Source: Desulfobacterales bacterium
GTDB lineage: Bacteria > Desulfobacterota > Desulfobacteria > Desulfobacterales > JBGLNM01
Direction: 5' to 3'
Length of the DNA stretch: 64,000 bases
NCBI GenBank assembly: GCA_041299705.1
Contig: JBGLNM010000001.1
Location: 3,814 to 67,813, forward strand
Shown here: positions 34,089 to 34,203 of the stretch, in pieces
Position numbering within the stretch: position 1 is the stretch's first letter
How the letters are laid out: each line of letters opens with the position of its first letter
Translations under genes and position numbers: made by a program
Notes under the pieces: model-generated
Told to the model about the DNA's origin: nothing
What the model saw: only the letters and a program-made list of their open reading frames with translations
Databases searched by the model: none

Positions 34089-34203
34089 TCGATTTCGACA
34101 ACGACAACGATTACGATTACGATTACGACAACGATTACGACAACGATTACGACAACGATTACGACAACGGCAACGGCAACGGCAACGGCAACGACAACGA
34201 GAG
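34089..34203. repeat. Longest period-6 tract (CGATTT/CGACAA/CGATTA/CGGCAA, about 19 units)
   Basis: tcgatttcgacaacgacaacgattacgattacgattacgacaacgattacgacaacgattacgacaacgattacgacaacggcaacggcaacggcaacggcaacgacaacgagag. Confidence 0.85.

Follow-up and report, generated by a model that had tools for sequence, protein, structure and literature searches.

The 64,000-nt stretch of DNA analyzed in this study (Desulfobacterales bacterium, GenBank assembly GCA_041299705.1, contig JBGLNM010000001.1, positions 3,814 to 67,813; hereafter the window) contains a family of intergenic tracts built of tandem CGANNN hexamers, the most prominent of which (34089-34203, plus strand) lies in the 5' leader of serC. 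These tracts are probably the arms, or the relics of arms, of a small selfish cassette that carries a gene of the PF05635/TIGR02436 family, resembles the intervening sequences (IVS) of 23S rRNA while lying outside the ribosomal genes, and uses its arrays a second time as the codons of an Asp-X protein tail. The arrays exceed chance expectation and change in length between strains; the same arrangement of arrays around a PF05635 gene occurs in five phyla, the arrays are translated in frame as protein tails, and internally deleted derivatives occur in two lineages. What is new here is the hexamer-array-armed, extra-ribosomal PF05635 cassette, since IVS, derivatives resembling MITEs (miniature transposable elements with inverted repeats) and long simple sequence repeats (SSRs) are already known kinds of element. 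The literature full text that was searched for the repeats and for the protein family, a body that leaves out most subscription journals, contained no description of an association between such arrays and PF05635.

Period-6 arrays were called with Tandem Repeats Finder (TRF), and gene calls were based on G+C content at third codon positions (GC3) and checked with Pfam. TRF arrays were found at nine of the ten sites proposed in the initial annotation (4869-4886, 10984-11016, 11213-11286, 26225-26255, 32327-32355, 33822-33885, 34096-34200, 37038-37308 and 37814-37847). The largest is 34096-34200 (17.5 copies), within the serC tract, which had been estimated at about 19 units and does contain 19 at 34089-34203, while the block 37038-37308 resolves into three arrays within a 111-bp repeat present in 2.6 copies. 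The pattern CGANNNCGANNNCGANNNCGANNNCGA, i.e. (CGANNN)4CGA, was matched 33 times on the two strands of the window (G+C approximately 66%), compared to 0.00 times expected from 100 dinucleotide-preserving shuffles, which confirms that the proposed CGA-core family is real. In their head-to-tail short units and their length beyond chance, the tracts thus qualify as long SSRs; by comparison, 375 kb of orthologous serC loci from other organisms contained only 2 runs of four or more units. Every tract in the window is intergenic and matches occur on both strands, as first described. The tracts are also correctly distinguished from repetitive extragenic palindromes and bacterial interspersed mosaic elements (REP/BIME), since they are tandem 6-mers in which no conserved REP-like imperfect palindrome of 20-40 nt was seen, and from CRISPR, since the 6-mers are contiguous, in contrast to repeats of 23-50 nt that alternate with unique spacers of similar length. 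An Rfam scan of the window returned only a tRNA, with no Rfam family matching the tracts and no rRNA, and the suggestion that the hexamer family is undescribed held in the full text searched for repeat sequences, again with most subscription journals outside its coverage.

One intact cassette occurs in the window, located between two glycosyltransferase genes. Its gene (37350-37781, minus strand) encodes a 143-aa four-helix-bundle protein of the '23S rRNA intervening-sequence protein' family (PF05635, E=3.6e-23; TIGR02436, E=1.1e-21), and the closest solved structure to this product is PDB 2GSC (E=2.7e-10). Read on the gene strand, (TTGTCG)(TAATCG) units are followed by 31 nt, the gene from ATG to stop, a further 41 nt and then (CGATTA)(CGACAA)(CGAGAA) units. 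The upstream arm (37813-37850, with its array on the plus strand, so that the gene strand reads (TTGTCG)(TAATCG) units) ends 31 nt ahead of the ATG at 37781, and the first downstream arm (37255-37308, minus strand) begins CGATTA CGATGA CGATTA CGACAA CGACAA CGAGAA. Over 33 nt the upstream arm is 94% complementary to 37276-37308, and the two arms pair around the open reading frame (ORF) as a predicted 33-bp stem in both the minimum free energy and the centroid RNA structures. The downstream arm recurs twice more (37144-37197 and 37035-37100, within 37035-37197, minus strand), each time in a 111-bp tandem unit (TRF period 111, 2.6 copies, 37046-37315) that also holds CCCTGAA/CCTTGAA heptamers; 19 nt separate the end of the last copy from the glycosyltransferase gene that starts at 37021. 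A profile search of the window identified this one intact PF05635 gene and otherwise only weak matches resembling tails. The same four-helix-bundle superfamily includes Avd, an accessory protein in diversity-generating retroelements and a nucleic-acid-binding partner of a reverse transcriptase; neither a reverse transcriptase nor a template/variable repeat pair lies beside the PF05635 gene of the window.

The hexamer is best read as a codon pair. CGATTA-CGACAA, divided as c|GAT|TAC|GAC|AAc, encodes Asp-Tyr-Asp-Asn, so that 'CGA' consists of the last base of one codon and the GA of an Asp codon, and 'NNN' of the Asp wobble base and the opening two bases of its partner (Asn, Tyr, Phe, Glu-Asn or Gly-Asn). 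The tracts are accordingly best described as runs of Asp-X codon pairs, [GAY][NNC]n, in which Asp-Tyr (GAT TAC) and Asp-Asn (GAC AAC) predominate, and as the reverse complements of such runs. This frame is used in proteins: among the 120 closest homologues of the window protein (best 120 of 7059), 91 end in a C-terminal DY/DN run such as YGDYDNDNDNDNE, and the frame is the same in all 91. These tails place DY or DF first and DN next, and in 48 of the 91 the run is followed by E. The serC tract in the Asp-X frame reads PVDFDNDNDYDYDYDN(DYDN)3 GNGNGNGN DNE, likewise ending in '...DNE', and the downstream arm 37255-37308 reads DYDDDYDNDNEK; in both the serC tract and the cassette arms, the order of units matches the order in real protein tails. 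For the fixed CGA and variable NNN the initial annotation had suggested, as one of two options, a recognized periodic element, a reading superseded by the codon structure (GAY + NNC) and probable descent from a PF05635 cassette, which together would explain the pattern.

The same cassette was recognized in other genomes. A protein search with the PF05635 protein of the window returned 7059 homologues, the top ones 61-80% identical, belonging to several phyla and often located on contigs shorter than 1 kb. Relatives of this PF05635 subfamily were absent from viral contigs, and a single distant match was found among plasmids; carriage by phages or plasmids was rejected accordingly. When tblastn was run with the protein against the loci gathered earlier by array, only a Myxococcales metagenome-assembled genome (MAG) was matched; in its three loci (L088, L099 and L120), (GTAGTC)n and (CGACTA)n stand on either side of the gene and are themselves enclosed by another set of inverted termini. 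The polarity (TTGTCG)n(TAATCG) - ATG...gene - (CGAYWA)n is common to these loci and to those of Desulfatirhabdium (L204), Ca. Rifleibacterium (L205-207), Thiocapsa (L208-211), Lamprocystis (L212) and Planctomycetes (L213-215). All homologue loci from the latter five groups have a TTGTCG/TAATCG arm just before the start codon and a CGAYWA array at or over the 3' end of the gene. In total, the layout was observed in the window and in 7 further genomic contexts, representing 5 phyla. In addition, the unit types of the two arms co-vary, with CGACTA found in both arms in Myxococcales and CGATAG, CGACAA and CGATTA in both arms in Desulfatirhabdium.

Several features of individual homologue loci should also be recorded. 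In Desulfatirhabdium butyrativorans (L204, AUCU01000010.1) the arms reach approximately 350 bp each (locus positions 813-1163 and 1596-1912), a called 41-aa ORF (1599-1724) overlaps part of the repeat region, and the downstream side also has GGGATT/GGGATG hexamers resembling the G-rich units of Xanthomonas and Nostoc. Four homologous proteins (P0003, P0011, P0057 and P0114) have over-long N-termini (VVVVVIV, ITITTT or DYDRDNDN) that are translated flanking arrays; gene callers distort the ends of PF05635 ORFs because they run through the array arms. In the Ca. Rifleibacterium loci (L205-L207), the ORF after the cassette has a 12-nt coding repeat, GGCATCGAGAAA ('GIEK'), whose copy number is 4.2 versus 2.2 between assemblies, and HepT/MNT toxin-antitoxin genes adjoin it.

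Gene-less arrays are far more widespread, and many of them are paired. A scan of species-representative genomes for (CGAYWA)5 gave at least 118 stretches; among the matches listed, 44 were from Chromatiaceae (Thiodictyon, Lamprocystis, Thiocystis, Thiocapsa and Thiohalocapsa) and 4 from unclassified proteobacterial MAGs with the same layout as in Chromatiaceae. The 19 inverted pairs recognized among these listed Chromatiaceae and four unclassified proteobacterial loci all had the order TWRTCG...CGAYWA, and the opposite order was never observed; many MAG contigs have a plus arm at their beginning or a minus arm at their end. Three inverted pairs occur in the window; the pairing, the intact gene enclosed by one pair and the paired heptamers described below had gone unnoticed in the initial annotation. 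In addition to the intact cassette (37255-37308 and 37813-37850), they include a gene-less pair between a cobW-like gene and ccs1/ResB, with its left arm at 10981-11016 (minus strand, upstream of the cobW-like gene) and its right arm at 11213-11289 (plus strand; CGACTA, four CGATTA units, then CGACAA/CGAGAA), for which a long-range stem is predicted (z=-5.4). The third pair is the serC tract and its candidate partner arm, a CGAYYY-type array at 33823-33886 (minus strand, where it reads CGATTT/CGATCC/CGACCC) that sits 204 bp to the left of the tract, inverted to it, with 35 nt that are 80% complementary to 34090-34124. From site to site and from genus to genus, two or three unit variants recur in one order, with CGATTA near the center and CGACAA, CGAGAA or CGGCAA further out.

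In two lineages, the connection between gene-less elements and the cassette can be followed directly. In a Thiodictyon MAG, a conserved 52-bp core lies between paired arrays, which are enclosed in turn by imperfect inverted termini, also conserved, and this core was found by nhmmer at 20 places in the contigs retrieved; neither core nor termini were found in the window or in other genera. Translated on the sense strand, the core with its right arm gives MQFGVRENPGRYDNLDYDNDN, in which four N-terminal codons are joined in frame to the C-terminus of the family (compare ...EVRENPGRYNNLDYDYDNDN in P0112), with the frame open in 7 of 10 copies, and the outer flank of the element corresponds to the sequence downstream of the Lamprocystis PF05635 gene. 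In the Myxococcales MAG, locus L088 contains two internally deleted copies that have kept both arms. Judged by these sequences, the Thiodictyon and Myxococcales gene-less elements are internal-deletion derivatives of the cassette and are MITE-like: they are short and multi-copy, originate by internal deletion from a longer gene-carrying element and have terminal inverted repeats, consisting of the array arms and the outer imperfect inverted termini. The flanks of the Thiodictyon element contain TTAG/TTGG, which hints at a target duplication and is inconsistent between copies. Internal-deletion derivatives of this kind were not recognized at the gene-less sites of the window. The gene-less arrays of the window, including the serC tract, are read as older relics descended from such cassettes because they share the unit repertoire, unit order and pairing polarity of cassette arms.

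These observations suggest how the tracts could have arisen. In the cassette, the gene end or the DNA just past it is (CGATTA)m(CGACAA)n, encoding a (DY)(DN)n tail, and its inverted complement, (TTGTCG)n(TAATCG)m, precedes the start codon by a few to approximately 40 nt. Pairing of these arms can give a stem of approximately 30 bp or more enclosing the ORF, in the layout of ORF-bearing 23S rRNA IVS. As the arms are tandem arrays, any register would pair, and slippage would change arm length by whole codon pairs, leaving frame and complementarity intact. The arm stem may be processed by RNase III, by analogy with rRNA IVS, and the cassette, as a selfish element, is presumed to have a means of spreading. 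Inverted arms would also favor internal deletion, which may yield gene-less copies; gene-less pairs or solo arms would remain after internal deletion and decay, and their lengths would then be altered by replication slippage. For serC and the other host genes, the arrays are probably neutral passengers.

Among the closest known systems is the IVS of 23S rRNA. In Coxiella burnetii and Leptospira, this element of approximately 430-600 nt has a PF05635 ('S23p') ORF in its loop and terminal inverted repeats that form a stem of approximately 28-33 bp, the 28-bp stem of Coxiella being cleaved by RNase III, and it is described as selfish and horizontally transferred in the portion of PMC4990558 cited here. 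The cassette of the window shares with it a PF05635 gene and a closing stem (predicted at 33 bp). However, it lacks one defining feature, being located between glycosyltransferase genes rather than in helix 9, 25 or 45 of 23S rRNA; its arms are variable-length tandem hexamer arrays (none are described for the Coxiella IVS in that portion of PMC4990558), and its 3' arm also encodes an Asp-rich protein tail in most homologues.

The serC tract is where length variation was observed. Two MAG contigs encode a SerC identical to that of the window, and in one of them the hisD-serC spacer is the same as in the window. In L002, exactly 54 bp (9 units) are missing inside the serC tract, with otherwise 2 substitutions and an identical SerC; the partner array at 33823-33886 is identical in all three strains. 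The spacers that contain short impure arrays (between ispF and cysS, and upstream of the acs-like gene) are of equal length in the three strains, and an upstream arm in Planctomycetes differs by one unit between assemblies. The long pure serC array therefore behaves as a variable-number tandem repeat (VNTR), its copy number differing by 9 units between close strains in these MAG assemblies while none changed at the short impure arrays. The comparison of tract length between strains that the initial annotation had proposed thus gave a positive answer, and the slippage-prone part of its 'slippage-prone contingency tract' stands; the contingency part is unlikely, given a 6-nt unit, a position downstream of the predicted promoter and housekeeping neighbors. 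The contig L001 matches the window (99.97%) only from window position 31790 (approximately 5592 in L001) rightwards. To the left of this breakpoint, which falls inside a response-regulator gene (31407-32213), L001 has other genes (a hybrid kinase/response regulator, an MscS-type channel and CorA), reflecting either a strain rearrangement or a chimeric contig.

Beyond these strains, the tract is not a property of serC loci: none of 80 orthologous serC loci contained one, which rules out conservation of the tract at serC, and the nearest further SerC relatives in metagenomes were at most 75% identical. With the tract absent from 80 orthologous loci and the same SerC encoded in a strain with nine fewer units, nothing points to a role of the tract for serC, and a regulatory or contingency role of the tracts in general is likewise unsupported.

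Several points weigh against descent from PF05635 cassettes. The gene-less spacers of the window gave only noise-level matches to PF05635; because of this, descent of sites like the serC tract is argued from unit repertoire, order and pairing alone. Arrays far outnumber genes, with an adjacent PF05635 gene at 3 of 118 array-selected loci among the matches listed. CGATTT/CGACCC arrays (Asp-Phe/Asp-Pro) are atypical of the sampled protein tails, and the PF05635 ORF of the window stops before its array. No transposase, target-site duplication or empty site was found for the cassette, and its mobility is putative. Finally, the 54-bp difference was observed in MAG contigs assembled from short reads, where a collapse during assembly could have produced it.

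The first two of these points would fit ordinary long SSRs that originated by slippage independently at each site, in which case the likeness to cassette tails would be coincidental or the cassette would have acquired a local repeat. Pure (CGACAA)n or (CGATTA)n runs do occur sporadically across many unrelated phyla, and long SSRs with units of 5-11 nt are abundant in some bacteria (Mrazek 2007, as reported in the part of PMC4679880 cited here). Nevertheless, independent slippage is unlikely because it would not reproduce one set of two or three unit variants in a fixed order across sites and genera, the single polarity in 19 of 19 pairs among the matches listed, the frame kept in 91 of 91 protein tails, or the deletion derivatives seen directly.

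It is still less probable that the tracts are functional cis-regulatory elements of 5' leaders, acting either as unstructured A/C-rich translational enhancers or as periodic sites for an RNA- or DNA-binding protein, a role suggested for the Beggiatoaceae TAACTGA heptamers (PMC4679880). The positions of some arrays are suggestive: 11213-11289 ends 22 nt ahead of the ccs1/ResB start codon, a short solo CGAYYY array at 4857-4886 (plus strand) is separated by 11 nt from the start codon of a minus-strand thioesterase gene, and an arm of a heptamer pair described below ends 8 nt before a ribosome-binding site (RBS). Similarly, the promoter-like site TTGACA-N16-TACTAT is present upstream of serC as initially annotated (33977-34004), with the tract downstream of it, and the tract alone as RNA is predicted to be essentially unstructured (z=+1.55). 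However, among the matches listed, 32 arrays of Chromatiaceae-type loci point toward a downstream start versus 38 into a 3' end, and distances to genes range from 11 to more than 400 nt. The association with 5' leaders noted at first is consequently not a rule, and the sense orientation suggested by 6 of 7 CGAYWA arrays of the window, which point toward a downstream start, is ruled out as a rule by the Chromatiaceae split and represents a small-sample effect. Mixed orientation also led us to drop periodic RNA binding of the TRAP, HutP or Hfq type. The absence of the tract from all 80 orthologous serC loci, the identical SerC in a strain with 9 fewer units, and neighboring genes without a common functional theme (serC, hisD, cysS, ispF, ccs1, cobW-like, thioesterase and glycosyltransferase) add to the case against a cis-regulatory role, and the protein- or RNA-recognized periodic element first envisaged loses its footing on the same mixed orientation, serC comparison and housekeeping neighbors.

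Phase variation, in which unit number would switch adjacent genes, agrees with the unit differences between strains but is largely refuted, since a 6-nt unit, as a multiple of 3, leaves any reading frame unshifted, the serC tract is located downstream of the promoter predicted at 33977-34004 rather than between its -35 and -10 hexamers and so would not alter promoter spacing, and the neighbors are housekeeping genes and not surface, virulence or restriction-modification genes.

Descent from PF05635 cassettes, which remains the preferred explanation, invites comparison with other short tandem repeats of bacteria. The GGGAATC heptamers of Xanthomonas and GGGGAYT heptamers of Nostoc form intergenic tandem arrays in hundreds of copies, seventy of them as close inverted pairs on opposite strands, with mixed orientation to genes and with strain-variable length, the single or paired type being kept (Rehm et al. 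2015, PMC4692102). The hexamers are likewise intergenic, with tandem units in the same 6-7-nt range; many form inverted pairs, and their length can differ from strain to strain. However, the heptamer units are G-rich with G-quadruplex potential, while the hexamers are without G-tracts. Rehm et al. report no general link to mobile elements, and a coding origin is not discussed (PMC4692102); their table includes a GGGAATC array over the start codon of XCC0516, and XCC0516 is a PF05635 protein. The TAACTGA direct repeats of Beggiatoaceae, Thiocystis violascens, cyanobacteria and Bacteroidetes (MacGregor 2015, PMC4679880) have a patchy phylogenetic distribution that suggests horizontal spread, and occur as sets of 2-6 copies, overwhelmingly forward and a few nt from start codons, with 1 of 170 inverted. 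They resemble the hexamers as short intergenic tandem arrays of sulfur-oxidizing Gammaproteobacteria, including one member of the Chromatiaceae, but the hexamers are mixed in orientation (32 versus 38), often paired, and do not keep to forward positions near starts. With MITEs and REPINs the hexamer elements share short length, multiple intergenic copies, terminal inverted repeats and an origin by internal deletion (Thiodictyon 52-bp-core and Myxococcales copies), differing in that the cassette gene is no known transposase and the inverted repeats are variable-length arrays. Foldback (FB) transposons of Drosophila have long inverted arms of short tandem subrepeats, variable in number, around a variable center; they are eukaryotic and unrelated in sequence, and the analogy is one of form only.

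The window also contains a heptamer family (AGGGTTC/GGGTTCA; complement GAACCCT/CCTGAAC) with the same paired layout as the hexamers and a different unit. One inverted pair, (AGGGTTC)n - 35 nt - (GAACCCT)n, occupies 60682-60795, stops 8 nt short of the RBS of a radical-SAM gene, and is predicted to form a hairpin of -66.8 kcal/mol (z=-6.7). A second (57609-57768) consists of a GGGTTC-type left arm (57609-57627), a spacer of approximately 93 nt, and a GAACCC-type right arm (57721-57768). The G3 tracts of these heptamers, at 4-nt spacing, suggest from sequence a potential for G-quadruplex formation. An intrinsic-terminator function was rejected, since a 61-nt segment folds no better than shuffles and a terminator scan found none there. 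In the 111-bp units downstream of the PF05635 gene, every hexamer arm is likewise followed by heptamers.

A broader possibility, which we regard as tentative and rather doubtful at present, is that PF05635 genes in general travel as 'extra-ribosomal intervening sequences' with inverted arms of short tandem arrays, the unit being lineage-specific, and that their gene-less derivatives give rise to enigmatic repeat families. Such a source may lie behind the CGAYWA hexamers found in Chromatiaceae, Myxococcota, Desulfobacterota, Riflebacteria and Planctomycetes and behind heptamers in cyanobacteria resembling short tandemly repeated repetitive (STRR) sequences, and only possibly the GGGAATC heptamers of Xanthomonas. 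Arrays of 6 or 7 nt were present beside every PF05635 gene with inspectable DNA, in a sample that is small and partly chosen by repeat. A distant PF05635 gene on plasmid pANA02 of Anabaena sp. 90 (L216, NC_019429.1, 43392-45518) lies between cas6 and cas4 in a type I-D CRISPR-Cas operon, with approximately 280 bp of GGTGACA/GGGAACA heptamers upstream and complementary (CTGTCAC)4 downstream; the 5' end of cas4 as annotated includes the downstream array, so its start may have been called wrongly. In a Kofleriaceae locus (L109), hexamer arrays of other composition lie beside two PF05635-like ORFs, and those around one of the ORFs are apparently direct rather than inverted (TRF consensus units, compared by eye).

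The remaining tracts of the window are short or degenerate. Of the ten or more sites initially proposed, most are clear and three are weak. A solo, short CGAYYY array (26228-26257, plus strand) lies between ispF and cysS. The first weak site (26849-26875) has only 3 units (26851-26868, plus strand) and lies upstream of a gene resembling ADP-forming acetyl-CoA synthetase, and the second (32324-32357, plus strand), directly downstream of hisD, is degenerate (73% matches, TRF score 30). At the third (30133-30170, minus strand) TRF detects no repeat; this degenerate tract reads DHDEDNDI in the Asp-X frame (translated by eye) and is possibly a decayed relic. Unrelated to the hexamers, an 11-nt unit, GCAAGATGACC, is repeated 3.1 times at 30267-30300, between nadK and a peptidyl-prolyl isomerase (PPIase) gene. 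Elsewhere in the window, an RNA polymerase beta'-like ORF (42540-45419, minus strand) starts at approximately residue 415 of a normal beta', behind a 73-aa PAS-like N-terminus, and keeps the NADFDGD motif, and a beta-like ORF directly after it (38702-42547, minus strand) has a normal N-terminus and diverges past approximately residue 1200. With their beta'-then-beta order and two truncations, these ORFs (38702-45419) have the appearance of a partial, permuted rpoBC copy or of an assembly artifact.

Tandem repeats of 6-7 nt, such as the cyanobacterial STRR, Xanthomonas GGGAATC and Beggiatoaceae TAACTGA sequences, are abundant in some bacteria and have no agreed origin or function. Descent from PF05635 cassettes would give the hexamer family a concrete origin, as the coding tail, and the inverted copy of that tail, of a widespread small gene cassette that would leave gene-less foldback relics across intergenic DNA. 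For practical purposes, the hexamer tracts should not be annotated as regulatory motifs. Paired tracts break short-read assemblies, with many MAG contigs ending inside pairs, and tracts cause gene callers to extend or misplace ORF ends; they also constitute ready-made strain markers. If the broader possibility were true, the large PF05635/TIGR02436 family would gain a defined genetic context in which its function could be tested.

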